Numbered from the stretch's first letter, positions 3 through 56,891 are shown. The stretch: DNA of 64,000 nucleotides from Candidatus Omnitrophota bacterium (GCA_038222225.1 JBBRHV010000006.1:1626-65625), one strand, 5' to 3'. The notes: generated by a model from the letters alone, not told the origin. Made by a program: numbers and translations.

Positions 3-3000
3 TCTGATCAAAGGCCCAATTCTTCAGAGCCACTAGAAAACAATAAAGCGGTTGTTTCCAAGCTTCTGGCCGGGGTTGTGGTTCTGGTGAGCTTGGTATG
101 GCCGCTTGTTTTGTCCAAGGCCTTTGTATCAAAATATCTGGCGTTCACGCTTTGGGGCACATTGGGAGAAGGATATGTTTGGCAGCTCCTCACGTACAGT
201 TTTCTCCATACGAATCCTTTGCATTTGACCTTCAATGTGATCGCGTTTGTTTTCTTCGCGAATTTCATAGAGAGGGCAGTGGGGGTCAAAAGATTTTTGA
301 CTCTCTTTATCGGAGCAAGTGTTGCCGGAGCAGTCTTCCAGGTGCTGGCAATGGCCGCAAACAGTTTCACCTCGCCGGAATTAGCGGAGGCACTGGATAT
401 CACTCCTCTCATCGGACTCTCAGCAGTAGTAGCCGGGCTGATCGGAGCCTTCGGCGTTGTGCTGCGTGATCAGAAAGTGACATTCTTACTGTTGTTCATT
501 ATTCCGTTCCGCATCAAGGCGCAGCGGTTGGCGCAGATGTTGGTCACCGTCAGCATTGCGGCGATCATTTTCAATATAGTTCGCGGGGCCCAGGGCGGGA
601 TCGCCCACGGGGCGCACCTCGGCGGGCTTATTTTTGGTTGGGTTTATACGGAATATTTGCGGCGTGCAGGAAAGATCGATACGTTCATTATTGAAGAGGA
701 GAAACCCAAGGATCCTTCCGGAACCAACGCGGCGGTATTATCCAACTCAGATCCGGAAGGGGGAGTTGTTTCTTATCCGGCCCGTTCCAGCATCAGCGCT
801 GAAGAAAGGGAAGCAGCAAAACAGGGTACGGGCCCGGAAAATCTCAAGGGCTATGTCGTCAATTCACGGAAGATTCTGGGCGTTCCGGTTGAAGGTCTTG
901 AGATCAGTTATTCGGACCGCAGCGGACAAACAGTTGCTGAATATAAGCCGGGCCGTGTTGCCATTGATCTTTTGGGCCTTGGAGCCCGGGCGCCGCCGAT
1001 CGATCTCGAGCATTCTGCAAAATCCCGTCGCTTCCAGAGCATTATTCATGATGTTGTACGACAAATTATATTAGCTTCTCATTATTATGCCCTTTCAGAG
1101 AAAGATGTCCGTCAGGTTTCAGCCCGGCACTTTATCGGCCGGCAGCAAAAAGTTCAGAATTTTCTGGATCAGGAATTTAATCTTCGCGAATTCGGTCTGG
1201 TGTTTGATCCTGCCTATCTTGAGCTTTTAAGAAATTACCAGAGAATTGATCCTCAAATCGAAAGAATTAAAGAGCAGCTTGATCTCTTCAAGGGCGGGGC
1301 TGTGTCGTTTGAAGAGCTGTGTGAAGCTCTGGATGCGCGCGTTATTCTGAATGTGGCATCGCGTGCCTTATTTGAAGTGGGGAACAGTCCGTACCTGGTT
1401 AAAATTTACCGCGGCGGAACGCTGACGGCGAAGGCGTATGCCGCCGAAAAACAATTTTATAGAGAATATAACCCAACGGTCCAGCCGGAGCTGGTTTATT
1501 GTGATGACAATCTGCAGGCCTTGGTTGTGACGGATTTGAACCAGCTGGGATTGGTGCGCATGTTTGATTTTATTCAAGGGCCGTTCATTACGGAAGAATT
1601 GTTGGGTTGTTCGATTTCTTCCATGGCCCATGCCTTGGCGCAGCTGCATAGCAGCGCTGACGTGGCCTCGCAAACCGGTGAGCGGAAATTTGCTGAACTC
1701 AGGCATGAAGTGGACCGGGCGGTGGAGGTCTTAAGAGCGGCCGGGTTCCAAGGCCTTCCCGATGGAAAGAGCCTGGAGGATTTTCTTGCGCGATTCCAAG
1801 ATTCAGTAGTCGGAGAAAATGAACGATTGGTTCACGGCGATTATCTGATGTGGAATATTTTTGTTGACCCGGCAAGCGGAGAGGTGCGGGCCCTCATTGA
1901 CGGTGAGATGAGCGGTCTTGATTCTGCCGCTAAAGAGATGGCGAACACGATCCTGGGATTGATCGATGCCCGCAAGAATCATCCGTTCTTAATCAGTCAA
2001 ACTGCGGAGATGTTACGGTCGTTTTGGAGAGAATATATCCGGGAGACGAAAGACATTACCGGGCAGGAGATTTCTCCGGCGTTTGAGACTCGGGTCCATT
2101 TTTATTGCGCGGTCCAGTTGCTGATTGGCGCCAGAGTTGCGCATGAGAAATGGGCTAAATGGGCCCATTTCAGAATTGAGATGGCCAGGTTTTTCCTTAA
2201 TCAGGAAGCATTTTCATTGGAAGCTTTCATTGAGTTTTTGAATCATAATATTGGCAAACAACCGATCGGTTGGGTCGGGAATTTTGATGTTGCGACTCAG
2301 CACGGGCAGAGGCCGGGCTCGGGCGTTGAGATAATGATTGATGAAACAGGTTGGGCTGATTTCTTTGCCGAGGTTTGGGTTCCAGGAAACATCGGGGATC
2401 CGATTTTTGCATTGGGTATCGGAGCGGAATTACGTGTGACAAACAGAGACACCGGCGTTGTTTCGATTTGGAGGCCAGTGGAATTTTGTCATTTTGCGGG
2501 GAATAATTATCAATTTAGAGGAAGCGTGTTTTATCTCCAGGCGGGATCGTATGATGTGGAACCATCCTTCTCAGCGGATATGGGAGAAACGTGGTTTATT
2601 CCGCAACTCCCTTATGGCCCGTGTCATCTGACAGTGACAAAAGCATTGTCTGGGGAAGCGCCTTCAGAAAAGATAGTGAGTGTGGTCTTTTCTGACCTTC
2701 ACGGTGAGTTGAATGGTTTCCGTTCAGCGCTTGTAAAGCTCGGTATGATTTTACCGCAAAATAACCCGATGGAAGATATTTGGATTTCTCAAGATGTGAC
2801 GGTGGTTGTGGATGGAGATATCATGGATCGTGGTTTGCGACAGAAAGAGTTATACCACTATATCTGCCATCTCATGTTGACCGCCGAAGAAAGCCGTAAT
2901 CGGGTCATCTTTATCTTAGGAAATCATGAGCTGCTTCATCTTCAGGGGACTCCGGATGATTGGACAGCTCATGCGCTTACAGAAGTGATTAGAGAAGGTA

Positions 3001-6000
3001 TTCTTCGAGGAGATATTGTGGCAGCCGCGTATCTAGGTGGGCGTCTGATAGTTCATGCGGGAATTTTACCTTTTATTACCATGGATTTGATAAAGACATT
3101 ACGCCCAGGATTTTTGACTGTCGTTGCCCATCGGTCAGGAAAGTTCGTAAAGGATCTTACCGCGGTTGAAGTTGCCATCGAATTGAATAAAACACATAGC
3201 GTTCTTTCTGCTGACTCTATCGTGAATGAATTCAATCGGAGATTGCGGTTGGCGGTTGAGAAAGGCGATTATTCTGACGTTATTTTCCAGAGAGGGAACG
3301 CTCATTTTGGCGAGAACAAAAGGCCTGGAGAGTCGGGATATATACCCGGAGGCATATTCTGGGCAGACTATGAAAACGAATTGCGGCTGGTTGACCCGCG
3401 TGCGCTTATAGCGCAGATCGGAGGACATAGGGAGGGGAATGCGCTCCGTTGGACAAAGGGAGCCAGGGCTGTGAACGTCAATCTTTGTTATAAAGAGGGA
3501 TTTGGACGCAGCTCCGGAGTCGCTGTGTTTGATGGACAAAACTGGAAAGCTGTTTATTTTGATGGCCGGCCCATGCAAATTATTCCTGCTGTTATGGAGC
3601 GTGCTGTAAAACGACAGACAACAAATTCGGCAGCAGGTCAAGGCGGAACCAACGCGGCTGTTCTTGAGGGTGCGCCTTTTGAAGAACCGGAAACGGGTCG
3701 GATGAGCAGGCGAAGCATGCTGAAAATGCTGGCGCTGGCAGGAGCAAGCTTGCCGTTCATGACAACGACTGCTTTTGCTGATGAACCGACGGTTGATGAA
3801 GTTTTGACGGAACTTTTGAGCACTCAAACAGCGCATGGCCTCATTAAGAGTTTCAAGGGCACAACCGATACCTTCATGCAGAATCAGGCCGTGACCTATG
3901 ATCAGGCAGCCGCCGGGATCGCAGCTCTTGCGGCCGGAAGGACGGCGGAAGCGGTCAGGATTTTTAATTTCTTTTATAACCAGCATAATGGAGGAGATCC
4001 TGTCTGGAACGGGTTTGTGAATATGTATGATGCGACCCGCGGGGTCAAGGGCAACGAGCGCACGATCCACACAGGCCCGAACATCTGGATGGCGATGTTC
4101 AGCCTTCATCTTTATATGGCAAGCAGCGGTCAACAGGCCACGAAGGCCTTGACCCTTGCCAAAGCGCTCATGCAGTGGGCCAGGGGTTTGAATCATCGCG
4201 ATGGAGCGGTTGCCCTTGGACCGGTCCCCAATAATAATATTTTCTCAACAGAACATAACCTTGATTATTTCGCCTTCCTTAAAGGAATACAGTCGTTTTT
4301 GTCCGCGGCAGAAGCGGCGATCGTTCAAGCAGAAATGGACGGGGTTGGAACATGGTTAAAGACACATGCTTATGACCCGGCCAGAAGATTGTTCAAACGC
4401 GGAGCATATGAAAACCCGGTTGTCTATGCTACAGATACGTCAAGCTTTGCATTTTTATTGGGATCGCAGGTTCTGGAAGATTGGGGCATTGTTCGCTCAA
4501 CATTCATCGGCCAGTCCGATGCTGCCTATCGTGTCGGGACACGCGGTTTTGATGTGGCGAGTGTCGAGAACGCCAATTGGACCCCGCGTTCACGTTATGT
4601 CTTCAGAGAGTTTACTCTTCAGATGGCGGTAGGATTTTTGGTGATGGCTGATGATGAACACGATCGAGGCAATTTCACGCTGGAAAAAACGTATCGTGAT
4701 AAGGCTCAGCTCTATGCTTCTCAATCTGGCATAGATGGTGATTATCAATATTGTGAACAGACCGGGGTTCAGCTCTTTTATGATATTCCGAGCTGGAAAA
4801 CAATTAATGGTCAGTCGGCTTCGGTCATGGCCTGGAAGATATTTGCACTTCTCGGTTTCAACCCGTTTGGATTTGTTACAAAGGTGCGGCTGTCCGTCAG
4901 GCGTCTGGCGGCAACTGGAAATATGGAGTTGACTTTGCGCAAGGAAAGTATGGCGTCGCTCACTGCCGAGATTCTTTATTCAGATGACCTGGGAGATCAG
5001 AAAGAATGGAAGAGCGCCGGTTCAGTGGATTTGAGCGGCCTAAGGGCGGTTTGGGTCGATAACGGTTCTCAGACCACAACACATCCGTCGCAAAGCTCAA
5101 GGAGATTCTACCGAGTCTCGGCTGTAAATTCGTCTGTCCAGGGATTGGGCGCAGTCCATCAGGAGTCTAACGGTTTAGTGCCAGAGACGGTATTAATTGG
5201 GTCAAGCGCAGAGTATGGTCAAGAGTTCAAAGATGCGAATGCAGCAGTTTTGCAGGGGAAATTTGTTCAGACAGTGAAGACCAAAGGATCTGGGCTTAAT
5301 CGCTTTGACCTCGGGCGTTGGGGACGCGGGGCACTGCATTCAGTTCTTGCGCTAACACTGCTCACATCCGGTTGTGAGAAAAAAGAGGATACCCAGGGAG
5401 ATGCGTTGTCGGGAGTCGCGGTTCAGCCTGTTGATAGGAGCGCATTGGAGAACAGGATCAAGGAAGAGGTCCGGAAACTAGAGTATTCTGACAAGAACGC
5501 GGAGGATTTTGTAACGATGCTACGTCAATGGAAGAATGCTCAAGGCCAACCGGTTCTTACTGCGTGGGAGCAGAGCATTCTTAATGCCCGGAAACAATAT
5601 GAGCAGGGAGCCATGACAGCCGATCAGTTGGCCGGGATCGAAGCCGGGGTTGTTGGAGAAGTTGCGATGAGGATCGCTGAAGAATTTTCCGCGAATAATA
5701 ATGCTTTTGAATTGACCGATCTGATTGAAAAGAAACAGTCACAGTGTGTCAGCAGGTCAATGGCGGTAGCTATCGTCGGGAATGTACTTGGATTTAAGGT
5801 TGACTTTCTTGATGTTGATGCCAAGGAGATCAGGGCGATTGACGTTCCATTGGCGGAAAGAACTGTGGCGCATGCGGCCACCCTTGTACATTTGACCGGC
5901 GGGACCGTGATCATCGCCGATTCAGCGCTACGGTTTGTAAGCCGGCCGTTTTTAATGGAAGAAACCTACGCCGCAGTCGGGAACTATTGGGAACTTAAGA

Positions 6001-9000
6001 ACAGGAACGAACCGTTGTTGCTGCATGGACGAATCAGGAAGGCGTCTCTTTTAGCAGAGATTTATAACAATCGAGGCAACGCCTATGGAAGAGCCGGTCG
6101 TTATGAGGAAGCCTTCGCGCTGATGGCGAAAGCGATGGAAATCGATCCGGCATTGGCTGCAGCTTATTACAATCGGGGAGTTCAATATCAGGATCTAGGC
6201 CGGGTAGCCGAGGCAGTGGCGGACTATACAAAAGCGATCGAGCTTGATCCAAGAGATGCTGCTCCATATTGCAATCGGGGGAATATTTACAATACCGCAG
6301 GACGGGATGCTGAGGCTGTTGCTGATTATACGAAGGCCATTGAGCTTGATCCGCAATTAGCAGTGGTGTATTTCAATCGGGGAAATATTTATGGCAGATC
6401 AGATCGGCCAGAGGAGGCGATTGCGGATTTGACGAAAGTGATCGGGCTGAATCCGGAAGATGCCCAGGCTTATTACAGGCGGGCAGTGATTTACGGAAGA
6501 GTCGGTCAGTTAGAGAGCGCCAAAGCAGATCTCTTAAAGGTGCTGAATTTAAGTTCGGATGAAAAGCAAAAAGAACAGATCAAAGCTGCTGTTCGCAAGA
6601 TTGATGACATGCTTAAAGAAATGCCTAAGAAGAGCGCATCATCCAGCCACTCTGTTAAAAACGCTGAAACCAACGCAGCGATCCTTTATCCGTCACGCTT
6701 GGTGCCTGGACAAACGCCGGACTGGGCAATAAAATTCAGAACGACGTTGCCTAGCGATTTTGTTGAGGCGGCCGAGTCAGAGGATGGAGAGCAGGGCGTT
6801 GACAAGGTCATGTCGCTGGGGATTTGCCAGGATTCGCCGGACGTCTCGGAGCTTTTATCAAGATTTTATCGAGGATTGATGGAGAATAGCAACCCATCCG
6901 AGGTCCGCAGTCATTTGATTTATGACACGTGGTTAAAACTTAAAGAGAAGAAGATGGATGAATGGAACGCGACATTGGCGGTGTGGTTTACGTATGTGGT
7001 CTTTCAAAAAGCTTTAAGCATAGAAGCAAAACGATTAGCACAAAAGAATGCTCCGGCGCCTTCTGTTGAGGCATCCACAGAAGTCGCTACAGAACCATCT
7101 TCAAAAGGGCAGGAAGAAGGGGCGTCTGCCCGGGAAGATGAGCGTTACTTGGGGATTGTGATCGAGGTGGAAGGGTTTGGCCAGGTCACACTGACCGAAC
7201 GCATCGCCCGAAACAGCCGGACGCTTCTTTTTAAGACGAATCACCCTGGGCTTTTGATCAAACTTTTTGATCTGAACCACACCAGCATCGCCGGAGCCTT
7301 TGATCCGGTGATCGTCCAGAATTTTGAATTGGAACGCAATAATTTTGTCGAGGTCGCGAAGATCGATGAGCTGAGGCCGTATATTCCGCATTATTATCAG
7401 AGCGGCATCATCAAAGAGAGCAAGTACGCTTTCATCGCCATGGAATACATTGAAGGCACGGACTTAAAGAGCTGGCGGGAACAGGTTATTAACGGACGCA
7501 GTGAAAAGACTTTGACCGCCATTGAGTTCTGGCAGATGATGTCCCAGGCGATGAGCATTTTAAGAATATTCCACAAGTATGACCTGATCTTTTCTGATTA
7601 TAAACTTGAGAATATTCTAAGGCTGGCAGACGGACGTCTGAGGTTCGTTGATCTGGGAAGTGTTTTCCTTATTCATGGCTCGATCAAACCGCAGGATTTT
7701 CCGTATTCAGCAACAATGGAGGATTCGGAAGTTTTTGAAAACGCTGTCACTTTGAAGAACGGAAAGCCGCTGGCGAAAATTTCCGATATCTTCTGTGTGG
7801 GTGTGAGCCTGTTTGAATTCGCCACAGGCCAGGACCGTTTGACGCTGAGTCGTGAATATGCGGATATGCTTTTGACTCATTTACGCGTTATCAACCCGCG
7901 GATGTCTGAAACCCGGCTGTATTTTAATTATTATCCTCATCTTAAGGGAAAATTACCGACGCTGGAAGATCAGCTGCGTGAAGGATACGTCTTTTTTGCT
8001 GATTTTTGGCATTTGCTGCACGAAGTTCTTAAATATACCCAAGACGGTTATGAAGACATGGGACAGGCTGAAAAGGATGTTGTCCTGTTGTCGGCGGGGA
8101 TCGATTTTATCCGTAAGCAGCTTGGGCCTCTGGGCTGGGTGGCAGAGCCTGTTGCCCGGGCGACAGTTCTTAGACGCGTCCGGGTTGACAGTATTCATGA
8201 TCTGCTTTTGACGTTCCACAGCCCCTTGGGAGCGGAGGTCGTTGATGACCTTCGCCGTCACAACTGTTTTGTTGGTTGTGCTGAATCACAGTTCGGACAG
8301 CAGGGTTTCGTGGAACAGATGAGCACTTGGGACGTGCGTCTGAATTCGCACACTCAGCATTGGGCGGTCCAGGCGCCGGTCGCATTCAGGCATGATACAC
8401 AAGAAGCCGGTGCGTTGTTCTTGCAGCAGACCTACACGGATGAGGATGGCCATCGGTATTATCACATCACAAGCATGGAGGAGGCGGATGAATTGCCGAA
8501 CGGGGAAAAATTGACCCTGGCGCATTTGGAGGATGATCCGTACGCTTGGCTGGGAGCTCCATCGCAGGAAGATAATCAGGGTGGAAACTCTAAGAAAAAG
8601 CCTGTTCCAGCTCCTGAGAAAGAAAAGATAGTCATTGCGGGTAACGAAAGTGAGAAGCAGAAGAAAAAAACCAAAAGAAAATCCAGGAGGCAAAAGCTTC
8701 CAAAACCGACGACACGAGAGGAGGCCATCGCGTTGCTGATCCAAGCGGCCGGACGTGTTCCTTCGAACATTGCAAAAACCCCGCATCTTGTGGCCGACTT
8801 TTCACGCGGAGAGTTGACCGCAGCCAAGATCAAGAGCATGGCAAGGCAATGGGGGATTACGGGATATGATGTGCCGATCTCGAATTTGCCTTTTAGAGCG
8901 TATTCACGGAATGCTTCTTCAGACGAGCAAACAAATTCCTCTGTTCTGAACGAAGATATTTCAAAAACCGGACCTCCGCAGGGCTTTATTCATGTGGATG

Positions 9001-12000
9001 TCCATCCGGAAATTTGTTCGTTTAACGCCCTTGCTGAAGTTCAGCATCAATTTGGGGAGCTCACCACCATTGTTGTTGTTTATAGACGAGCCGCCGCTCT
9101 TCTTCAAAGGAAGCCGGTTTATGCCTCGCGTGAAAATGATATCATCATTCATTCCGACGGGATTATTTCTCAGGATCAGCTTATTTCGAAAATAAAAGGC
9201 CCTATCGCGCGCCTGTTGGTAACCGGCAATGAATTTGAAAGCTGTGTTGCCCGGGCTGTTTTTTCCATCAGAGAATTTATGCGGGATCAATATTCTGCCG
9301 GGTTTGTCTTGGATGTTCATTTTCCGATGGATTTGATCGTTGCCAATCGTCATGACTATCGCGATGGGGGATATCAAAAGATGATCGCGAATATAAAAGG
9401 CGGGGACTTTTTCTACAGCTATAAATTTCAAGCCCGTCGGATTGCCTATGACATCTATGATGGAACCGAACTGATCTGCCCTTGTGGGGAGGGAAGCGAA
9501 AATATTTCCAATCTTTATGTATGGCCATCTTTACAGAGCATGAAAGATGAATTAAGCCGAGGAACCGGCGGGACCAACGGGGCTGTTCTTGAATCAGGAG
9601 AGGGCGGCGCCTACAAGGAATTGATTTGTCGGTTTGACATGAAAGAAGATTATGAGGCGGATGATTGGAAGGAATCACGGGTTCTTAAGCGCGTGGCACT
9701 TATGAAACAGATCAGGTTGGGTTGGAAATATCCTCAGATGGGAGAACCGTCGGAACAATGGCTCAATGAGCTGAGAGAACTCGTTCTTCATCGTCTTTGG
9801 ACAAAGCTTCAAAAAGCACATCGTGGAGACATGTTTTTCCCTCAAGACATGGTTTCTCTCAATCGGTCGCTGAATCAGCCGTTTGTTTTTATCGTCGATG
9901 AACTTTTAAAGAACGCCCTTGATGCCCAGGCCTTGGCAGGGCAAAGCGGAAATGTCCATCTTGCGAGATCGTTGCAAGGCGGAACATTCGTGATGGCGGT
10001 TTCTGATAACGGAATCGGCGTCCGTCGCCCATTCTTAGGCTCAGAGCAGCTGGCTTGTATTGAGTCTTTGGCAGATCAGCAGAAGAGACGTAATACTCGT
10101 TTGGAAGCAAGTGATGGGGCTGGATTGATCTGGGTTCAGTATCTGGTCGCCATGCGGGGAGGTAAGCTTGAAGTCGAATCTCCCGGTCGCAATGAAGCCA
10201 GGACTACGGTTGTTGTGTCCTTGCCGGCGGATGCGTTAACGGTCATTGACAAGACGGGCTTAGGTTCTCAGACAAATGCTGCAGTCCTTCAAAAGAGAGA
10301 AGATGTCGCTACGCGGTTTATTTTTAGGTTAGCTGATCATTATGGTCTTTCTTCCACTTGTGATCCGCAGGAGATCCTTCAGGTTCTTCGTGCCAGGGGA
10401 ATCTTGAGTTCAGGGGAAGAAAGGGCGTTTGTCAGATATAGAAAAATTTTAAAACAGATGTATCCGGAGCTGAGCCTTGGGCAGGCTGAAGCACGCTGGA
10501 CGGAGGGCTACACATTTTTCGGGAATAATTCTTCTGAGGATTGGGAGCTTTCCGGACTGACGGAAGATTTTACGGTCATGGTTAAGAAACACATCGAAGG
10601 GATCCGGGCCGTTGAACACACCGATCATCCTGCGGATCAGGGCTGGTGGAAGGAAGATGGGCTGAAAATAAGAGTGATCCGGATTACGGATAGTCTTGAT
10701 TTAAAGGCGGCGTTACCGAACGAAAAAACAGAAAACCTGCCGCTGTCATCTGATGATGAAAACGGTTCACTGCACCTCTTTGAGTTTTTGTTCAAGAAGA
10801 TCTTTATTGAGCCAAAATATTTTGGCCTGGTAGCTTTCAAAGAAGGAAGGCCTGTTGGTGTATATGGGGTTTTTGTTTTAAATGATTGGAGAACGATCTC
10901 TGGGCGCGGATTATATGTCGTTCCATGGGAAAGGTATAAGAAAACAAATATCGGGTGGATGCTGGTCTCAAGGATGGCGGAATTGTTCGCGCTCAATGGC
11001 TATAAGTATCTTTATATCCCTGTGGCCAACCGTCCGTCGGCGCAGAAATTTTTTGAGAACGTGTCGGACAATACTGGACGCTTCCAGTTTTTCACAGAAA
11101 CAAAACGGAACGATGACGGAAAAATTCAAAAGGTTGCTGTGAAGCTGCAGGAAAGGTTCACTCCGGTTCAATGGGACATTGATCTTAAGCGTCAGATCGG
11201 CCAAGTCAACAGCGCGGTATTAAATACGAGCCTGTTGCAGCAGGTCCAAAATATGGAGGCAATGTTTAAAGCCTATGAATCGATTCTTAGTGACCATGGC
11301 CGACAGATACACGAGAGAGTTCGAGTGGTTTTAAGAGCAGCTTCTCAAGGCGTGATGAATGCAGAGCAGCAAAAAGAAGTTCGGGCGCTCGTGGCGTTGA
11401 TGCCTGATCCGCAGCATATTGATATTGAATCCGGCGGAGAAAAGAATTGGATCCGTTGGTTTGATTTAAGCCCGGAAAGACTGGGCGCATCTTTAGATCA
11501 AAGCATTGCCGATGGATGTGCGTGGCCGTGCCTGCATTGTGCGGCGTACAATGGCCATGCCAAAACAGTGATGGAGCCGCTTCCTGTTGTGATCGCAAAA
11601 ATTTTAAGCAGAACACAAACGGATATTATTTATCCATTCCAGTTCGATCTGATTTCTTGGCGGGATCTTTTCTTTGGAGTCGGCATTTCGGGATTAGCAG
11701 AGTTTATATCACGGTATAACCCGCAATATCAATTACGGTCATTGCCGACACGAGGTTGGGATAGCGATGATGCCTTTGTTCAGAACGAAGCCCTGCATCT
11801 TGCGCAGCTTAAAATCGCTAGTGGTATGTTCATTCTTTCATTCCATCTGTGCCATCAGCGGTATGACATCTTGCCGGCTATTGCGCAGGCGGTCAGGAAC
11901 GGAGACCGTGCAGAACTCGATGCACTGATCGATGTTTATGCAGCACGTTATGCGAATGTGATCGCTACGTTAAGTCCTGCGCTTGATCGGGTCAGCGTAT

Positions 12001-42000: not shown

Positions 42001-45000
42001 TGGAATTTCTTGAGATGTTTGTTGTGCAGGCAGCTCAGAGAATCGAACAATTACGTCGGGAAAAAAGGCATAAAGAGGCCGAACATGCCATCCAAGGAAT
42101 GCGTAGGCTTTTGGACAAGACCCCGCTGGCGGAAACTTTCAAGCAAATGCTAGGAGACATTGACCGCCGTTTGCAAGAAACACAACATAGAACGCCGGTT
42201 TCCGAGCGTATCCAAGAAGGAGCAAATGGCAATGAAACAAATTCTGCTATCGCGCATGGGACTGACAATGCAGATAATACGGGCAATGTACCGGATGAGG
42301 TAGGAGCAAGGCTTAGTGCTGAGGTCTGGCTGGATGTGGCGCATTTGGATGCGGAGGCGGTCAATGGGGTTTTGAGATTTAAGGGGAACGATGGCTCTGG
42401 ATTGACGTCTTTGACTTTGACAGACCTTCCGGTGAGTGCCGCTCTGGATCAATTATGGTTTTTGTGGTTTAAATGGAAGAATGACAGAGAAGCATTTTAT
42501 CGTGATTGGCTTTCTCATCTCCGAAACATTCCTTTATCGTTTTCTCACTTAAAACAAGAAGACAATTTAAAACAAGCTGTGCTCAGTAAAGGGCGCATGG
42601 CTTTTGCGATTCATGTGGCTGCCAATATGCGTTCTGACCGTTGTTTGTACGAACGATTAGAGGCAGCCGCGAGATCAGGAGCGCATACGGTGCTTGTCGT
42701 TTCCGGCGGAGGCCTTTATCAGAAAATTTTACGAAGAGTACCGTTTGGACGGTATGTGTTCCGTGATGGATCTTTGAAATTGATTCACATGTGGGCCAGT
42801 TTGTCGCGTGAGGGAAAGGTCCCTCCGGGTGTGAGGATCGCCGTTGCGCTTAATTCGAATTATATCGGCTCGAAGGCAAAGCGCGAAGCGGTTCGTTTGG
42901 TAAAGAAAGTGAAGTTGGCTCAAGAATTGGGCATTCCGCTTTCTCAGATCGAAATTCATACCATGGCTCCTTTGACCGGGTTTGAGTGGGTTGACGGTAT
43001 CGGGCTTTGGAACTTGCGCCATGTGGATGCGATCGCGTTTTTCAGGGACATCTTATTACCAGTTTTAGCAAAAAATGGAATTGGTACTAAAGAGTTAACC
43101 GTTCGTTTTGGTGTGGCCCATGTGATGAATGCAACAAACTATGCATTTTGGGTGTATTTGGCTGGCCGATCCGTCGATGAAAAGAGTGCGGGCCGGGCGT
43201 ATGACACTTGGCGAAAGCATTCACGTGCTGATCAACTGGCAAAAGCATGGTGGAGAGTTCAGTATGAAGTCAATAAGCGGATTCAGGAGCAGGCGTCTTT
43301 TGGTCACGTCGCATTGATCTTTCAGCCGGCGGCAAAGAAGGCGGGGGATGCGGTTATCCGTTGCGCGTCTTTTGTGCAAAGTGTGAATAGCGCGGTTTTA
43401 AAGACAGCAAGACAAAACGGGCTTATCAGCGATTCAATCATTATTCAGGAATTAGGTTTTATGCGCAGGATGTTTACGGCCTATGAGGGAATATTAAGTG
43501 AACAAGGCCGCAGAGCCATACAGAATATCAGTGAATTCATGAGTAGTCTTCAAAGAGGCTCGGCGGGGGATGATGTTCGCCGGAAAGCCGTCGAGTGGAT
43601 CTATAAAATGCCGGAACCGTTGCAGTTGAATATGGAAGACGAATGGCTGACGTGGTTTGATCACAAGAAAATCCAGTTGTTCCCTTATGGTTTAGGGGGC
43701 GGGTGCACGGAGCCTTGCTTGCATTGTTTTTGGGGGAATCCTGTTCCAGTGGCGAATCTAAATCCTCTTCCTGCCGTATTTCTCGGCGCGAAAAACAGCA
43801 AACGAGAAGTTCTTACGTGCGGACATTTTGATGATCTGGAATGGTATGACCCCTTATTCGGAATTGGGCTAGACAGCATTGTGAAGTATTATTTGAATTC
43901 AAATCCACGGCAAAGGTTAAGTCTTTTGACTCGCGGTTGGGAAAAAGAACATGCAAGAAAACAACAGGTTGTTGAGAACATTGTTCGTATTGTATCCGGC
44001 GCTGATTATAACTTTGAATTTGGAGTTTCCTTTAATCTTGCTCAGTCTGGAAAATATGATCTCGCTAAGGCGATTCAAAGTGGAAGGCTGGAGTCTGTTT
44101 TAGAACTGTATGCTCAGCGTCATCAACACATTTTAAGGACGCTTCGAGGCTTGTCGAAGATCCGATACGTGGTTCGTCCGCTTCTGCAGGAGCGGGAGTT
44201 GGATCATCCCACAGAGAAATTGCTTGGCATGGTCTTGCGCAAAGCTGAGGTTGCGGCTGCGGACGTGAGAAGGGCGGAGGCGACCGTCATTGGAAGCAAT
44301 AGAAACAGCCGAATCCCCTGGGGCCCAGGAACGCTCACGATCGAATGTGATCAATGCATCAATGAGACCGGTTCCGGCGGTGAGTTTATTCGAAGCATTG
44401 ACTCGGCGATTCGCGGAGAAGATTTTGTGCGAAGTTCCTACGGGCACATATATAGAGAAGGCATGCCGTGCGCTCAAATACACGGTGCTACAAATGAGAT
44501 CGTTGTTGTTCTTCCCAGCGGAAAGCGGGTGATGCGAGGACCGATAAGCGATTTTCCGATGAGGACGGTAAGGCAAAAGGGCGCTGCTCAAGGTGGCAAC
44601 TCTGCAATTTTAGCTGAGAAATTCAGTGATTGCGTTGATATCGATTTTGAGAGGATGTTACAAGACCGGAAAAAGAAGTTCTCCTCCAGTTGGCCGCATC
44701 TTGATTTTACAAATCGCATTTTGATTCCGTTTCCTCTGCCAATGTTGCGGGTGTACGGAAAAGAACCATTTCATGACGAAGATATTCAGCGCGTTATTTA
44801 TGAGCTTTTAACCAATGCTCACGATGAGGCGCCGGCCGGGCTGATCAGAGTGAATTTTGAATTGGGAAGCATTGATTCGCAGAACGGCCTAAGTCTTTTT
44901 ACGATCCAGATCGAAAATGAGCGCACCGGAGAGATCCCGTTTGATCAGATGTTTCGGTTCCTGTTGGGACAGGCAATCACCGGGAATCTGTGGCGTAATA

Positions 45001-48000
45001 AGACGACGGATCAGCCGGTCATTGAACGGATCCAGAACCGTTGGGAAGTTGGGGAATTGGAAAACATGCCGGACATTTACGAGCGCGTACCTGACCGTCT
45101 TCAGGCCCTTGCGCTGGCCCACCGCTATGTTCGTCAATATGGGCTTAAGTCGATCCTCTTTCTTGAAGGAGTCGGTCGAAGAAAAAGTAGAGAGAGAAAC
45201 GAGATCGGCGGAGTGGGCGTGGGACTTTATAACAGCCGGTATACCATCAATCGATTAGGGGGAAAGATTGATCTTGATGATACGCGCTCGGGCCGGACCA
45301 CGTTCGCGATCGGATTTTTTGTCCGGGAATTTTCATTGAGGCAAAAAGGATCGGATGCGTTTGTTAGCGGTGCTAACTCTGCGGTTTTTAGGGGATCGAA
45401 GGATTCTTCTCTTGATTCTCTGCTTGAGAGCATCATGGCGTCCCACAAAGAGAGCGGGGTGCGATCAACGCCTTGGGCTGCAAGGATGGACAAGCCGCTT
45501 GACCGCACAGGATTCAACGGGCCGCACCTTTTCGCGAATATTGAATTAACGAACGAGCAGGTTCGGTTGTTCCTTATCCTTAAAGAGCATAAACAGGCGC
45601 TCCTCAATTTACTTGGTGAAAGCTTCAGAGCTGTATTTGGGAAAGCGGCAGGGATCCTTCTTAATCAAAATGTTTCTGGATTTAAGGCAACACAGGTCGA
45701 TGAACAGTATTTAACTTGTACCGTTGGTGATCTTTTTATTCCAGCCATCGAAAATGCTTTTGATGCCTATATGAAAAAGAGCGGCCAATCATCCGATGTT
45801 CCGTTGGTTCTTGAATTTTATATTTCCTTTGATGGCCGGGTGATGATTGCGGAGATGCGCACCAATGGTCTGTCGTATGATTCCGGTGAGACCGCGACCT
45901 CCGAAAAGAAAAAGGACTCGGATCAATTGGGTGGAAAAGGGCGCGGACTGAAAGCCATTGATGAATTTGCTGCATGCATCGGCGGGATCCAGTGGGATAT
46001 CCGAAACCGTAAAGATCTTTTTCCTGAGGATGCGGAAGGATCTGTTTTTTATGTATCTCTTCAACGGGATAAGCTTTCTCAAATCGTCAGTCATGCGGCG
46101 AAGTTTTTTGGTCTGGGTTCGTGCGCGACATGCCCAGAGGATAGCGTCAGAAGAAATGCCGACGCAACGAGCAAGAATAGTGGAGCGAATTCTGCAGTCT
46201 TGAACGGAAACACGGATGATTCGACGGGAAGTGATTCTCAAAAGAAGCGCTTGGAAGATTTCTTGAGCATGGCTAAAAATTCACAGTTGGAGGCGTTTTG
46301 GTTAATTCATGAATTAAAATTGGATCAAATTGAGCGGGCCGTTTCCGTTGGCAGCGGCGTGCTTGCGTTGGCGCCGTTTGAAATGATTTTAATCGAAAGC
46401 GGTGTTGTGGTTACGATTTTTGATCCCGATCCAAACGTTCAGGAAAATTGGGCGCAGTATAAAGCGCGAAGGCTTAATGGCCATTGTGTTGACCTTGTAC
46501 CGTTATCCAGATCAAAATTTGGAAGTTCAGCACAGCCGATCCAGGGTGCGCAGATGTATATTACGATGAATGTTTTTGGTCGTTCGGGCATTCCTATGAC
46601 AGAACGTGCACAAATGTTAGGCCTCTTAGCGAAAAGTTTTAAAAACGGGGACTTTCTTTTGAATGGATGGTGCAGTCCGCTGGCGTTTGAATTGATTGCA
46701 AATTCGCCGGCACCCCAAGAGGATGTCAGGGTCGAGACCGCGCTCAATCACGAGCATATGCTGGCCTTGGTGAATCTTTTGGAATCGCGGCATATGATGT
46801 TGGAGCCTGTCCGTTTCGGCAGGAAGGAGGACGTTCTTCATCAGAGGGACTTTTATCGAATTATTCCGCTCGGATCACCGGTGATGCCGGTAGCTGATAA
46901 AAATCGAAAAAAGAAGGGTGAGCGCCAGCCTGGAAAGAGGATGTCCGAAGATAAAGGCGCCAATGCTGCTGTTTCGCAAAATAATGAAGGCGTTCCGGCG
47001 GATGATCGAGGGATCGATTGGAAAGGATTAAGGGCAGGGCTTGAGCAGGGAAGTTCCTTGTCGTTCGGCAAGGTCAAGCAGCTGATCCGGGCAGGGAACA
47101 AGAAGGTGTTTGGTCTGCTGCAATCTGTCGTCGCCGGCCACAGCAAACAAGAGGCTGCGGTTTGGCATTTTATTTTGACGGTGGATCTTGATCGGGAATA
47201 TTCAGCCCATTTGGGTTCGAACATGAGAAATTTGAAAATGGCTGTTATCCGGGCCGCGCAAAAGGATCTTGAAAAAGGCGGTGTGCCCGGGTCCGATCTT
47301 CTGGAGCAGTCTGTGTCCTATGGTGATGAAGATTCTTTGAGCGCTCTTCAAAGGGTGGCCTTCGGTGTCAGCAAAGGGAAATTCCTTGCGATCAGAGTAA
47401 TCTTTGAGGCGCAAAAGGAAAAGAGTCCGGCGTCTCCGCAAATACGGGCTGTTTGCCGGGGATTTTTGAACACGATCGCCTATAAATTAGGCGAAGGGAT
47501 CGAGAGGGATCCAGAAACGGGGTTACTCATACTTGGAGCGCTTGTTTTTGAGATGCCTTGTGAACCGATAGGGGAAGGGGCCCGCGGGATATTAAAAAAT
47601 ATCGTCGATGGGAAGTGCCGGTTGACTAAAGAGAAAAGGATTGAGGCGTTGAATTCTTTGGTGGAATGCGTTCGTGACGGAGGCTCTGTCGATTTGCTGG
47701 AGTGGATTTTGAAGGGCGTGGCCGCGCTTGACGGCAAAGGCTTCCCGCGTCTCAATAGCTGGAGCGTTCAAGAGATGCTGGGTTCGCTTTTCCACAATGT
47801 TTCGGTGGCGCCAGTATTGCGCTTGTATGCTTATGGACTGATGCCATTGCCGGAAAACGAGACCGAAGCGCTTGTATTAGCTAAACGTGTGTTACATGAA
47901 AAGGCCCATTTGACCTCCTTGGAACTATTTTCAGACAGCGGTGTTTGGCACAATGAAGAGCTTAAGGTTTATATCTTGGCCGTGTATTTGATTATGGTTG

Positions 48001-51000
48001 CGAAAATAAAAAGAAGCAGTTCCTTTTTTTCACGATGCCAGAATCAGGAAGATGACATCGACAGCATTATGACCGGCACGATGCTGAAAGAAGATTACGG
48101 CGGGATTGGTAACAGCAAGCTGCAGTTCGGGCGCAAAGATCTTATCGAGGACCGCAATGAACCGAAGATGATGTTCGGTACCTGCGCCCACGAGTGGACG
48201 CATATTTTTAACCGTTGGATTATTGAAATTTATAGGATCGAAGAAGAGGATGGACAGGATGCGATCGATGAATTTTTGGCGGATCTGGGTGCGGAAATGT
48301 TTTTTGGAGAAATGGGCTGGCAGCAGGCAAAAGAGGTGCGCCGGAATAAATTTGTATTTCAGCACGCGAAAGTATTTGGGCGGAGTCCCCGGGCAGATCA
48401 GATCAGCCATGAGCAGCATGAGGCGGCCCGTGTCGCCTATAAGGAGATGCAGCGGTTTTTGGAAGCCAGGGAAAGGGAGACCGGTGAACGCGTTCCTCTT
48501 TCTGGAGAGATGCTGTTTTATCTTTGGGGTGCTTTGGGAGAGAGGAAAGCAGAGGAGATATCGTTTGTCATGTTGCAGGATTTGCTGCAGGTCCGGTATG
48601 GTTATGCGGAGTTTGTTCATCGGCGGAAAAACAAGTTCCAGTCCCGTCCCCTCGCGGATAGCGAGATGGAAGAAAAAGGAGTAACGCAACGTGAACCTGA
48701 TAAGGACATTGTTTATGTGATCAGATGTTGGCATGTAGAGGAAGAGGAGCGCGCCGAGCTGTTTGAAGGACCAAATGTTTTACGAATTGCTGTTTCATCC
48801 GGCACAGAACCGCAGGCCAGCGGATCCCAGGATATTCAGGTCATACAAGAGGCAACAAACCCGAAGGATGGAGAAGCGCCATCTTCTAACGCCAACTCTG
48901 CGGTTTTAAACTATTGCGTCGCGTGTTTTGCCGGCGTTGTCGCGTCTCCCTGGGTCGCATTGCCGGTTGACGTTGTCGCAAGCATTGCCATGATGTGGGG
49001 AATCATTGTTATGTCTGAGGGGATCGAGATGCGGCACTCTTTAATTTTTAGGGCTCTCACCTGGATCAAAGACCGTTATGAATCACGCAAGGTCACGATC
49101 GAATTTTTGAAAATGGTCTTGAGGTTTGCAAACATGGTTGGTTTGTATGCGCTTTTATCTTTTTCGTGGGGAACGCTCATTTTGCAATGGATCTCGTTAT
49201 TAAGCATAAAGCTGGATTGGCCTGAGTGGATGACTTTTATAGCAGCGCTCCTACCGGCAGCAGCCTTCATCAGCGGAGTAAGTATGGTGGTGGTCCCGGA
49301 GATCATCCGGGTGCATAAGGAATGGAAGAGATATCTTAAGAATATCCGGGGAGATCGTGCTCCGGAATGGATGGCCCAAAAATACAGCCATATCTCCGCG
49401 GAAGAATTGCTCCACCGTTCGGTGAGGATGAAGCGTATTGGGCGGGTCTTGTTAGCTGCTGTTTGGGGAATAGGTATCATTCTTTTGGCGATGTCGTTCC
49501 AGCATGCTCCGCACATGAAAGTTCTTAAAGGCATAAGCATTGTTGTTCTGTTTTTTTATTATCAGACATTGGTTGCAGCCCGGGAAATGAAGAAAATGGC
49601 AGAAGAATTGGAGCAGACAAAAATTCTAAGGGAGGCTTCTTTAAAAGCCAACCGATCCAGGGCAGGGCCGCCGGTCAGTTCTTATTCGGATTTTAAAGGT
49701 GGTATCAATTCAGCAGTATTGAGTGAACAGAGCGAACCGGATCATACGTCTCCCAATAAAGCAATTTTTGATTTTGTTCGACAGAGTCTCGGGGATGGAA
49801 CAACCCAAACAGTGAATGAGGTGGCGGAAGCGCAAAGACCCGTGATTCTGCAGGGTGGCAGAGATCAGGCGCTTAGAGCAGGTAATGATTCTTTGCCTGA
49901 TGATTTAAGAAAAGTCAATGCCGGTTATCAAGCGGACATTTATTTCTCGCCGAGTCGACGGATGTTTTATAAGGTCAGGAAATCCACGCTGTCTGCCTAC
50001 TATAGGTCATTACGGAATCATCTTCTTGATCGCGGGCTGTTCAGAACATCGGCGTATCTGTGGATTATGGACACGCTGCGGAAAAATTATCAAAGGTCCG
50101 CTGGAATGAAGACCGTGGAGGGTCAGCCTTTTTACGATATTCTTTCGCAGGCCGGTAAGGCCGGACGGCCGAACACCGGTGTTCTTGTCCGCATAACGAA
50201 GATGCTTAAGGCCTTCAGAGCGGTTGTTAGTTTTTGTATTGTTATGGCTGGCAGTATGTTTATTTTTTCAAAGACGGTCAGGGCTGAGAAGGCGCTTTTC
50301 CATGACAATTATTTCAAGGGTTATGAGGACATGCTTAAGTTTGGGTTTGTGCAGCAAGGATATGTGGCAGATTTTCGAGTGATCAGTGTCCCTGCGGAGG
50401 ATCGGAATGGAATTTTTAAATGGAGATGGTTGGAGCGGAACCGAAAGGTCATTGAACAGTCGGAAGTGGTTGAACTGATACAGGTGTTGCGGGAAATGAC
50501 GGATGCGCAGTTTTATGTAGCGGTCGAGCGTTACATTGAGATCCAGCATGCGTTTTGGCGCTGGGGATTTTTTAATCATGCTTTGGGATTTTTGGGAAAT
50601 TATGGATATGTCAAAGATAATGGTCAGACCAACGGACCACTGGTCCTTTTTGACCCGGGAGAGATCGTTAGTAATGGTGATAACGCCGAAGATAAAATTT
50701 TGGAGGTAGTCGAGCGCAAGAAGGAAGGGGCGTATAAGGACCTCAACGCATTGAATCCAGTTTGGGGGCAGTATTACAAGGTTAGAGTTGAGGCTGAACT
50801 AAACCGCTCCAAATTTTACGAGCTTTGGTGCAGTGAAGCCGGGTGCCGGATAGAGACAATCCAAAATTATTCCACTAACGCCGCGGTCGGTTCCAAATCC
50901 CGTTTCGTTAGCCGAAAAAGGGAAAGAGAAGATCGTCCCGCGATGGCCTTGCCGAGTTGGGAAGAGTTCAAGGACCCTCGACGGTCATGGCTGGTAAAAT

Positions 51001-54000
51001 TATATATTCTTTTGGTGCGTCAGCCGGTAAGAGAAGAATATAAACTTTTAGCCGAAATATGGAGTGTTGCGGGCTGGCTTGGGGAGCATGGCGTCAATGA
51101 GAGCAATATGCATGAGCGGTGGGTTCAGGAGCTTTTGGAGCTGCGTACGACGATTAATGCTTTTACCCGGTATCCGGTCCGGTGGTTCGGCCTCTTTGGT
51201 GCAGTACTGATGTACTGGCCTGCGGTGTTCATACATTTTGTTTATAATGCCCGATGGTTGGTGCGCAGGGTTATCCGGGAGGTTTTGTCAGGGGTGAAGG
51301 GTTCGACAGCAACTGTTTTTGTCGGCGAAGCTGCCATGGTCAGAGAAAAGAAAACATCCTCGGCATATCAAGTCATTGTTGAAGAGCTTTGGAATTTGAG
51401 GAGTTTTTATCCTGGGAAGATCTATCTGCGATCAAAGACTATCCTTTGGCTGATGGTGTTCGCTGCCCGATGGATTCTCCGGAAACAGTTATCCACCAGC
51501 TCGGTCGTGGTGCTCGAAAAGAGCAATAACCAGGGTGAAATAGGAAGTGGGCATTTACGGGTTTTCCGGGCATTTGTTTTTAGTTTTGGTTTGAAGTTGG
51601 AATTATTCAGGGCAGATGAGTTTTTGCTGATATCGACAGAAGAGCAGTTTCCAGCCCAATTCGACAAGTTGAAAAATTTATATGCGATGATGAAGCCTTC
51701 CCAGGCTTTTCCCTTAATGGGGGGATGGGCGGCCTCACCGGATCTCGCTATGATCATAGTTTCTTATATCATGAAATATCGTCCAAAAGTTGTTCTTGAT
51801 TTGGGCAGCGGAACTTCGACAATCATCATTGCTCAGGCTTTGAAAAATTTATCCTGCAGCCAGTCCCGCCGCACTTCTGCGGAACGGGCAGGATTCCGCC
51901 TAACGGGTGAAAAGATTTTGGGGGCTCCACAGACAGGGCATGTGTGGTCCATGGAGCAGGACGCAGCCTATGCAGGAAAGACGCGGCAAAATTTGGATGC
52001 CCATGGGCTTGGTACTTACGCGACGGTTATTCATGCTCCGATCAGAGAATATTCGAATCACAACGGCACGGGAAGATGGTATGACGTTTCCCGGCTAGAG
52101 GGTATCGGCCCGATTGATTTGGTGATTGTTGATGGGCCGCGTGGCTCAGGTCAAAGAGCTGGGGCCATGCCGATTCTTTTTGATCATTTAAGCGATGAGG
52201 TTGCGGTGATCATTGACGACACGAGCCGGGTGGCAGAACAGGAAATGGTTGAGAAATGGCTGAGAGATTTTGAAGGGTTCCGCGCGCAGGAAATTGACAC
52301 GGAAAAGGGGACGATTATTTTAAGAAAAACAAAAGCCGCCATGGATGGCGAAGAGGCAGAGCCTATTTCCTTAGAGTCTGAAATCAATGCCGCGGTGCTT
52401 GGAAATGAATCTTCGCCTAAAGAGGATGGGACAAATCACCAGGAAAAATGGTTTTTCCGAGATGCAAAATCCGGTGCGGTCGAAGTCCATGAAATTGCCG
52501 ATGATAATGGGGAAACAATTTGGCAAGTTCTCCAGGAACAGGAAGCGAGAGAGCAACCGGTTTCTGACAATAGCGGGAATAAGATCCAGGGAGCGACAAG
52601 CGCTGCGGTGCTGGGCAGTGGAAAAGTTGGCCGCAATGATCCTTGTCCCTGCGGCAGCGGGAAAAAATACAAGAAGTGTTGTGGGGGGGCTTCCGCTACT
52701 CAACCTTTCGCAGCGCCGGCATTGAACACAAGAAAGAGCGTCGGACGATCGTTCAGGTTTATTGCCATGGCTGATGGTCAGGTTCAAGATCTTTCTCCGC
52801 CGGCAGCGTGGGAATCAGGTTCCGTGGCCGTTTCTCCCCAGCCTGTCCATGGGCGCGCTGCTTTAACCGGGACGGTCATTCCGGCCAGACTTGAGCATGC
52901 TGAGCGCATACTCGCGCTATCCAAGAGGGTCTCCTCATCTACCCCTGTTTCGATGAATGTGATCATCAGATCCATACAGTCCATAGCTGAAGATTTCAAT
53001 GGTGAGCCGAGAATTTTTGTTTACATAGAGAAGAACGTGGTCTTAGGGTATACGTTCGCTTCCATTTATCCTTCAAGGAAACTGGTTTATATGGTTCAAA
53101 CATCCGTTGATCAACAGCATGAAGGCCGCGGGATCGGACGTTATCTGCATCAGTATTTGTTTGATGTTGTGCGAAGCCAGGGACACAAAAAAATCTTTTC
53201 AATATCGAATCCTCGTGCGGCGAGCATCCTTTGTAAGGATGGTTTTCAGGTTTTGACAGACGCCCGAAAACTTCCAGTGATCAGCATTGATCTGCGCGAT
53301 GATGAAAATGTCGTATCTTTGAATGCGACGTTGGAGGATGTTCTCTGCGTGGGGATTATGCGGGTTCTTCTGCCGACCAATCTGGTTGCCATTGATCAGG
53401 CGTTAATTCATGGGGATATGCCCGGGGTTCAGCATCTTGTCCGGACGAATTTTATTTTTGCCTGGCTGCGAGCCAGCGGCATTCTTCCTTCGGATGAATT
53501 CCGACGGAAGATCATTGCGGATTTTAACAGACGAGGGGCTGGTAGGGCTATGCAGCAGAATGAAGAGACGCTGGTTGTGGCCTGTGCGGTAGGGACTTCA
53601 CAACATCCGTCCTCGAGAGATGAAAAATTATGGCAAAGGGAGGGACGTACATTGCCGGCGTCTTTTGATCCGTTAGAAGATTTTGCGCAGCATTGTGTGG
53701 ATGTTGTTTTCCACCCCAAAGAATATGAACAGAGGTATCATTCGGCTGATGAAAAAGATCGACCTCGTTTATTGGCGCAGTATGCAGTTGTGAGGGATGT
53801 TCTTCAGCAGTCCCTTCCTGGCGCAAGAGATAGAGGACAGTCTTCTGGCGGAAGGGGACAGTCCCCCCGCGGGGACAATCCCCAATCGACCAACGCCGCG
53901 GTGCAGGTTTCTGATTCCATTCCGACGCCTTTGACTTCTGAATTTATTCGAACGTTGTCCGTTGGAAAGAGAAGTGTAACGTCATCCGAAAAACGCATCC

Positions 54001-56891: not shown

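Follow-up and report, generated by a model that had tools for sequence, protein, structure and literature searches.

A 64,000-nucleotide stretch of the genome of an uncultured Candidatus Omnitrophota bacterium (GCA_038222225.1 JBBRHV010000006.1:1626-65625; hereafter the window) carries a single open reading frame (ORF) of 18,937 amino acids (aa; 78..56891, + strand), in which a conserved heptapeptide with the consensus [G/E/Q]-[T/V/A/I]-N-[S/A]-[A/S]-V-L delimits about 55 modules. Judging from the sequence, we consider it likely that the ORF encodes a genuine cellular polyprotein that is cut at the heptapeptide by an endopeptidase, which would probably be soluble and cytoplasmic. In this bacterium, be it free-living or host-dependent, more than 50 gene equivalents would probably be combined in a single translational unit, with the heptapeptide as a separator replacing stop and start codons, an arrangement that can be called a cellular 'polyprotein operon'. 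The start of the giant gene lies almost certainly outside the window and its product is longer than 18,937 aa, since the frame is free of stop codons back to window position 3 and the rhomboid domain encoded there appears without its first helix.

A heptapeptide repeated along the ORF

We examined the 52 motif positions listed in a preliminary description of this DNA and found the motif or a close variant at every one of them, together with three sites beyond that list, at aa 1684 (AVNSSVQ), 13042 (GVNSSIF) and 13397 (DTNAALL). The Asn had been described as invariant, which is nearly right: it is present at 49 of the 52 sites and replaced by Ser at the other three (aa 6977, 17508 and 18166). 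The last residue is other than Leu, Ile, Val or Phe at seven of the 52 sites (S, N, A, S, G, Q and Q). A loose regular expression, N[AGS][AS][VI]x, gave 51 matches, compared with a mean of 1.9 and a maximum of 9 in 200 shuffles. A strict expression matched 44 times in the ORF frame, 0-2 times in each of the other five frames and not once in the six flanking genes. Information content was 1.5 and 1.8 bits at positions -2 and -1 ([G/E/Q][T/V/A/I]), 4.9 bits at the Asn, which is the most conserved residue, and 2.5, 2.8, 3.3 and 3.4 bits at the following [S/A][A/S]VL; the flanks hold less than 0.8 bit per position, so that the element is sharply bounded. When sites from the window and from its relatives were pooled (94 sites), the profile read [G/E/Q]-[T/V/A]-N-[S/A]-[A/S]-V-L-[S/N/G/D/R]-[G/S/A]. 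The spacing between motifs ranges from 19 to 1011 aa, with a mean of about 340-364. At 31236-31313, two perfect motifs stand 19 aa apart with an acidic, Gly-rich spacer (ENGTADHEQDGGE) between them; cutting at both would free a 19-residue peptide. The sites are as follows (window coordinates, strand, peptide).

720..740 (+), GTNAAVL
3645..3665 (+), GTNAAVL
5121..5141 (+), AVNSSVQ, variant, absent from the first list
5232..5252 (+), DANAAVL
6666..6686 (+), ETNAAIL
8928..8948 (+), QTNSSVL
9570..9590 (+), GTNGAVL
10269..10289 (+), QTNAAVL
11202..11222 (+), QVNSAVL
12372..12392 (+), QVNSAVL
13632..13652 (+), GVNSAVL
15381..15401 (+), GTNSSVI
15846..15866 (+), GTNGSVL
16740..16760 (+), DINSAVL
18168..18188 (+), EVNSAVL
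18786..18806 (+), ETNASIS, variant
19368..19388 (+), EANSAIL
21000..21020 (+), STSASVL, variant, Ser for Asn
22152..22172 (+), ATNASVI
22347..22367 (+), ETNASIL
22905..22925 (+), TTNAAVL
23244..23264 (+), GVNAAVL, inserted inside an internal paralog of the C-terminal module
23841..23861 (+), ESNASVL
26874..26894 (+), MTNASVN, variant
27075..27095 (+), GANSSVL
27678..27698 (+), HANSAVL
28770..28790 (+), GSNSAVL, where the homology of relative P0010 ends
30408..30428 (+), QVNSSVL
31236..31256 (+), GTNAAVL, 19 aa ahead of the next motif
31293..31313 (+), ETNAAVL
32343..32363 (+), GVNSAVL
32949..32969 (+), QTNAAVL
34104..34124 (+), EANAAVL, junction of PALP enzyme and alanine dehydrogenase
35487..35507 (+), GTNSAVV
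36765..36785 (+), TSNSSVL
37266..37286 (+), EINSAVL
38802..38822 (+), AVNSSVL
39195..39215 (+), GVNSSIF, absent from the first list
40203..40223 (+), GANASVL
40266..40286 (+), DTNAALL, variant, absent from the first list
42234..42254 (+), ETNSAIA, variant
43380..43400 (+), SVNSAVL
44592..44612 (+), GGNSAIL
45369..45389 (+), GANSAVF
46182..46202 (+), GANSAVL
46956..46976 (+), GANAAVS, variant
48888..48908 (+), NANSAVL, a transmembrane segment begins 2 aa later
49701..49721 (+), GINSAVL
50871..50891 (+), STNAAVG, variant
52380..52400 (+), EINAAVL
52593..52613 (+), ATSAAVL, variant, Ser for Asn
53886..53906 (+), STNAAVQ, variant
54567..54587 (+), DTSSAVL, variant, Ser for Asn
55053..55073 (+), AANSAVL
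56064..56084 (+), ATNAAVL, directly ahead of the conserved C-terminal module

The motif draws on both codon boxes of Ser (AGY and TCN) and of Leu (TTR and CTN), and third codon positions are near background, with zero nucleotide conservation beyond the 21 nucleotides. Because the codons vary so freely, the conserved object is the peptide and not a DNA or RNA element, in agreement with the earlier statement that conservation lies at the peptide level. A DNA-level feature, such as a recombination site, or a trace left by a mobile cassette system, read in frame by chance, would be in keeping with the edges of gained and lost modules, which fall at the motif (see below). It is contradicted by the near-background third positions, by the encoding of Ser and Leu each from two unrelated codon boxes, by the lack of anything conserved outside the 21 nucleotides and by the absence of the motif from the other five frames; we assign it a negligible probability, and codon use together with frame-specificity led us to reject DNA- and RNA-level elements altogether. 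An internal translation start behind the motif was ruled out as well. Met was not enriched there (26 of 51, background 0.57), a Shine-Dalgarno-like sequence lies ahead of only two of the 26 post-motif Met codons, and only about half of the sites have GTG or TTG as codons for the motif's Val and Leu.

Motif-bounded modules in the ORF and its relatives

Pfam and NCBIfam searches identified at least 18 distinct families along the ORF, one to three per interval, with matches in about half of the modules. They include Rhomboid, APH, Metallophos, TPR, Pkinase, HATPase_c (two copies), GNAT (five copies, the commonest family of the ORF), Rce1-like/CPBP, Methyltransf_28, HPr, PALP, alanine dehydrogenase, HTH, SEC-C and Methyltransf_24. 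The proposal that each interval carries a different, self-contained enzyme is thus borne out for about half of the modules; the rest are without a detectable family, and a relaxed Pfam scan of ten unannotated modules, including one with an HExxH motif, gave nothing credible. A PDB scan of two 5,000-aa chunks returned one result swamped by TPR matches and one that was empty. By hydropathy, about 45 transmembrane (TM)-like segments are spread over 20 modules.

Complete, unrelated proteins are joined by polar linkers of about 30 residues, and it is in these linkers that the motif lies. Within 15 aa on either side of the motif, the fraction of hydrophobic and aromatic residues is 0.17-0.25, compared with 0.35 overall, and disorder-promoting residues are enriched; the disorder of the linkers is read from this composition and from domain boundaries. 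At one junction, the PALP (threonine-dehydratase-like) fold stops at the motif (aa 11345; Pfam/PDB alignment), and solved alanine dehydrogenases align from their residue 2, which falls 22 aa past this same motif (PDB match, 1e-51). The modules referred to in the text are listed below.

171..662 (+), rhomboid protease module (Pfam Rhomboid, E = 2.4e-23)
11223..12392 (+), module m10, with CX3CX2C, full-length paralog of m41
12528..12803 (+), CPBP/Rce1-like intramembrane protease module
22926..23861 (+), m21 + m22, internal paralog of the C-terminal module, interrupted by a motif
33135..34067 (+), pyridoxal phosphate-dependent enzyme (threonine dehydratase-like), ends at a motif
34200..35477 (+), alanine dehydrogenase module, starts 22 aa past a motif
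38823..39215 (+), module m37, truncated copy of the N-terminal part of m10/m41, closed by a motif
43401..44612 (+), module m41, paralog of m10
48189..48203 (+), HEWTH (HExxH), in a module without detectable family
56085..56888 (+), C-terminal module

Self-comparison of the ORF revealed three paralogous module families, in one of which m10 and m41 align over their full length, from motif to motif. Both have a radical-SAM-type cysteine motif, CX3CX2C, yet no Pfam match; their truncated relative m37 is 131 aa long and may be a decaying cassette. In the internal paralog m21 + m22, the sequence SGGVNAAVLVP stands where the terminal copy has SMAEA. Both copies of this C-terminal module end in a PEP-CTERM-like manner (P-x-x, about 15 hydrophobic residues and RRR/RKR), and neither matches a Pfam family. 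We ruled out that the motif is part of a repeated fold, since its flanks are unrelated and only these three module families are paralogous.

Two further modules have features of their own. The TPR module at about 6054-6476 (aa 1993-2133) matches engineered consensus-TPR proteins (E = 4e-110), its repeats departing unusually little from the TPR consensus. A SEC-C-type zinc-binding motif (NDPCPCGSGKKYKKCCG; 52614-52700, aa ~17,513-17,540) lies directly past ATSAAVL and opens a GNAT-containing module.

Scanning related genomes for the motif, as had been suggested, recovered the heptapeptide in five related giant-ORF fragments of Omnitrophota in public assemblies. A 33-column hidden Markov model (HMM) of the motif gave 11 matches in a library of 1.84 billion representative proteins, from which very long proteins seem to be missing. 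Three of these are true relatives, fragments of 817-2,278 aa that are all annotated as Candidatus Omnitrophota. The cluster of one HMM match yielded P0012, a 6,662-aa fragment with 17 motifs. A metagenome scan with the C-terminal module added three more loci, one of them with a giant ORF of at least 3,628 aa and six motifs. The relatives L001, L081, L083, P0007, P0010 and P0012, which are all Candidatus Omnitrophota, keep the motif and differ in module content. In the metagenome-assembled genome (MAG) RA.bin146, a syntenic giant ORF has the same end point and carries INSAVL, TNAAVL, RNSSIL and TNAAAL. Other HMM matches (P0001, P0002, P0004-P0006, P0008, P0009 and P0011) were rejected as unrelated tandem-repeat proteins. 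P0002 (L087 6001-6501), for instance, is a 166-aa ORF with five tandem copies of RETNAAVLTGLIDST (exact consensus). Gene calls on its 1.09-Mb contig are sparse and short, and P0002 is probably a tandem repeat of non-coding DNA in eukaryote-like sequence, unrelated to the polyprotein.

Comparison with the relatives shows how modules vary. The C-terminal module (about 270-290 aa) is conserved at the end of every related giant ORF, where it is 57-60% identical to the window copy, and it is the sole module that the window ORF has in common with the last 3,300 aa of the L083/L001 ORF. P0012 and the window ORF have a collinear backbone of m03, m06, m08-m09 and m15 (48-73% identity); window modules m04 + m05 and m07 are absent from P0012, and m10-m14 are replaced there by one unrelated module. 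P0010 matches m25 + m26 (61% identity), and the homology ends one residue past the motif. All 13 homology breakpoints fall within 25 residues of a motif, seven of them within 5 residues, while about 16% of the chain is that close, a clustering that appears far from what chance would give. At orthologous junctions, the heptapeptide is kept and the adjoining linker residues diverge. Modules also vary internally, because the P0012 ortholog of m06 (aa 4437-5517, corresponding to window aa 2195-2958) contains an insert of some 230 aa, built from repeated HTH-like units (..TVAEMARQSGGDVSRETIK..), which is absent from the window copy.

From these sequence comparisons, the reading that modules are gained, lost and replaced as motif-bounded cassettes, with the motif as their delimiter, is strongly supported. 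The role of module delimiter, proposed at the outset, stands on a protein that ends at the motif, on paralogs bounded by motifs, on whole-module differences between relatives and on export signals that follow motifs, to which we now turn.

Export signals and the case for cleavage

We searched about 33,000 aa of giant proteins for twin-arginine translocation (Tat)-type signals ([S/T/N]RRx[F/M]LK plus a hydrophobic stretch) and for lipoboxes. Three Tat-like signals and one clear lipoprotein signal were found, and all four start 10-21 residues past a motif. Two signals in the window ORF are as follows.

3699..3785 (+), Tat-type signal peptide RMSRRSMLK...TTTAFA|DE of m03, 13 aa past a motif, conserved in the P0012 ortholog
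5310..5375 (+), lipoprotein-like signal (..LALTLLTSGC) with which the TPR module starts

In the P0007 ortholog of the TPR module, a lipoprotein signal lies directly past the motif (TNSAVL-RARTVLAAGLAGLVALSGC). Because such signals normally need a free N-terminus nearby, their position argues for a free N-terminus past the motif. Moreover, only one hydrophobic segment lies between m03, which carries the Tat signal for export, and m06, an ATP-dependent kinase, so the topology of an uncut chain would be contradictory.

These observations bear on the possibility that the chain stays whole, as one membrane-anchored mega-enzyme in which the heptapeptide is a linear motif, either a hinge or a place where a partner, chaperone or scaffold docks. 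Docking motifs, too, lie in polar linkers, Pfam and NCBIfam searches gave no protease of matching specificity, and a preprint of 2026 treats Omnitrophota giants as single membrane-anchored proteins (bioRxiv 10.64898/2026.06.07.730766). The Tat and lipoprotein signals past motifs are conserved in orthologs, however, and could not work deep in a 19,000-aa chain; the m03/m06 topology would be contradictory, and the modules, unrelated as proteins, come and go independently of one another. We take this alternative seriously and consider it unlikely.

Under the polyprotein reading, about 55 gene-equivalent modules, comprising cytosolic enzymes, regulators, membrane proteins and exported proteins, would be translated as one chain. 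The heptapeptide would be the recognition site of one site-specific endopeptidase, encoded either in an unannotated module or elsewhere in the genome, and the chain would be cut during or after translation. The freed modules would then fold, insert into the membrane, or leave the cytoplasm by the Tat or lipoprotein pathway on their own, and over evolution modules would be gained, lost and swapped as motif-bounded cassettes. Judged by the sites of known proteases, candidate scissile bonds are those after the Leu, between the two small residues and after the Asn. Cutting after the Leu is a candidate because conservation falls sharply past this residue, which fits an enzyme with Leu at P1. A cut in the pattern [T/V/A/I]-x-[A/S]|[A/S] would resemble the sites of Ser/Lys-dyad and assemblin-type proteases, namely signal peptidase I, birnavirus VP4 and herpesvirus assemblin.

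Several points weigh against cleavage at the heptapeptide. Searches with Pfam and NCBIfam of the part of the ORF inside the window, about half of whose modules match no family, gave no protease of matching specificity, finding only the rhomboid, the CPBP protease and the unclassified HExxH; the embedded proteases are intramembrane types, and TM segments are distant from 47 of 54 sites. Ten of the 55 sites depart from the consensus, with Ser for Asn or a polar last residue, and the very short intervals (19, 37, 65 and 67 aa) are without an obvious product. Pro directly follows the Leu at three of the 94 pooled sites, which speaks weakly against a cut after Leu there. Structure models were too poor to test linker disorder: a single-sequence model of the TPR module, linker and next module reached a predicted local distance difference test score (pLDDT) of 50, with the motif in a stretch below 50 and the TPR part also low, and an AlphaFold2 (AF2) model of the C-terminal module from a two-row alignment reached 33. 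Word-indexed protein searches gave no homologue, even for the alanine dehydrogenase region. To these points is added the view of the 2026 preprint that Omnitrophota giants are single membrane-anchored proteins.

The preliminary description had named the embedded rhomboid, CPBP/Rce1-like or HExxH module as a candidate processing enzyme; such an enzyme would act on the linkers in cis or in trans. The rhomboid and CPBP domains are present and look intact, six motifs lie directly ahead of a TM segment, and the heptapeptide loosely fits the rhomboid recognition motif (beta-branched, any, small, small, hydrophobic, hydrophobic). These enzymes cut in or next to membrane helices, however, and no more than seven of the 54 sites have a TM-like segment within 30 aa, the other 47 being farther from any. 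BLAST found no counterpart of the rhomboid or CPBP module in the 6,662 aa of P0012, and Pfam gave no rhomboid or CPBP match in the L083 or L081 fragments, although all of these keep the motif; the HExxH module matches no peptidase family. The best NCBIfam match of the rhomboid module is rhombosortase and those of the CPBP module are the CTERM-sorting proteases MrtJ/MrtS, all below curated cutoffs. A general processing role for the rhomboid and CPBP proteases is unlikely, and processing by any of the three embedded modules is quite improbable; the proposal is not supported.

Another earlier suggestion was autoproteolysis at the Asn. Such self-cleavage, through a succinimide and without any protease (asparagine peptide lyase chemistry), draws on the Asn being the most conserved residue and followed by a small one; Asn-Ala is also the self-cleavage bond of the nodavirus coat protein. 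Known Asn lyases depend on a folded domain for activation of the Asn, whereas the flanks here are unconserved and polar with no conserved fold around it, Ser takes the place of Asn at three sites, and the strong conservation of V-L four residues downstream would be left unexplained. We consider this suggestion very unlikely to be correct.

A third way of separating modules would be at the ribosome, with the nascent heptapeptide inducing bond skipping, or release followed by continued translation, as in the viral 2A 'StopGo'. Conservation purely at the peptide level is what this mechanism would predict, and the start codon or Shine-Dalgarno sequence past the motif that it does not need was not found. 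The 2A signature D(V/I)ExNPGP is absent, however; NPGP does not appear in the motif logo, and the only Pro residues at positions -2 to +4 are those at +1 in the three sites mentioned above. The 20-30 upstream residues that would occupy the exit tunnel are not conserved either, and to our knowledge no such ribosomal mechanism exists in bacteria. Ribosomal separation is extremely unlikely in our judgment; together with self-cleavage, a separator that acts by itself or at the ribosome remains improbable.

The giant ORF compared with known polyproteins and giant proteins

The neighbouring genes are ordinary bacterial ones, encoding an HMGL-like aldolase, Eda, HydE, MnmA and MutL, and the flanking MnmA is 81% identical to that of RA.bin146. 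GC skew is strongly positive across the window (1-64000; 0.11-0.23 per 4-kb window), including the region of minus-strand genes, with an excess of G on the + strand. Inside a coiled-coil-like module (aa ~13,680-13,800), a 180-bp tandem duplication at 41109-41470, with two copies that are 91% identical, looks recent and in-frame.

Giant ORFs are common in Omnitrophota (PMC10066038; bioRxiv 10.1101/2023.11.21.568195), where they reach 10,000-147,000 codons, and a preprint of June 2026 defines a class of 'multi-enzyme metabolic cluster' that fits the window ORF (bioRxiv 10.64898/2026.06.07.730766). The 57-kb ORF is a member of this kind of giant multi-enzyme ORF: its host belongs to Omnitrophota, its product has at least 10,000 aa, no Pfam family dominates, and TM helices or signal peptides are present. 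The earlier remark that no bacterial system of such architecture had been described is therefore outdated, giant and 'multi-enzyme' ORFs of Omnitrophota being described in the two preprints. The window ORF shares with these giants (Seymour et al. 2023, PMC10066038; both preprints) the phylum, a single ORF of more than 10,000 aa with many unrelated Pfam families, the presence of HATPase_c, GNAT, methyltransferases, radical SAM and TPR, scattered TM helices and sequences that are mostly unique between genomes. It differs from them in the conserved heptapeptide at every module boundary. Cleavage of giant proteins has been suspected, with no cleavage points known (West-Roberts et al., bioRxiv 10.1101/2023.11.21.568195), and a survey of huge proteins counts the motifs that are recognised among the open problems. 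PMC10066038, bioRxiv 10.1101/2023.11.21.568195 and bioRxiv 10.64898/2026.06.07.730766 mention neither a motif or linker between modules nor the processing of a polyprotein, and full-text literature searches for the peptide strings, and for polyproteins in Omnitrophota, returned nothing relevant. The delimiter motif thus appears to be undescribed.

Viral polyproteins processed by 3C-like proteases, Mpro or birnavirus VP4 resemble the window ORF in that one ORF encodes many unrelated mature proteins, joined in exposed linkers by a short, degenerate peptide with a near-invariant residue beside small residues. By contrast, the window gene is part of a cell's chromosome, has MnmA, HydE and MutL as neighbours, and comprises about 55 modules as opposed to 3-16; no protease of matching type encoded in cis was found in the ORF, and cutting here is a prediction. 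Multifunctional autoprocessing repeats-in-toxin (MARTX) proteins and large clostridial toxins are likewise very large bacterial proteins with unrelated enzymatic modules and an exchange of cassettes among strains, and their inter-module cuts follow a Leu. The window ORF differs from them in having no Peptidase_C80 (cysteine protease) or RTX-repeat match in Pfam or NCBIfam anywhere along its length; its modules, moreover, include housekeeping-type enzymes as well as proteins with Tat or lipoprotein signals of their own and are not obviously effectors. In multi-core precursors of ribosomally synthesized and post-translationally modified peptides (RiPPs), such as the cyanobactin precursor PatE, and in eukaryotic polyproteins, such as polyubiquitin and nematode polyprotein allergens, repeated recognition sequences also flank the units and direct a dedicated protease. 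Their units, however, are short peptides or identical repeats, unlike the roughly 55 different full-size proteins encoded here.

Whether the Omnitrophota giants work as one chain or as pieces is an explicitly open question, and the boundary peptide makes it directly testable. The motif predicts exact neo-termini that can be sought in metaproteomes, makes it possible to divide the giants computationally into units suited to folding and annotation, and offers a handle for finding the protease, both as a peptide substrate and through phylogenetic profiling. If the polyprotein reading is true, the window would supply a new pair of site-specific protease and site and the first predicted cleavage map of Omnitrophota giant proteins, and a strategy so far known from viruses would be in use by a cell at the scale of 50 genes.

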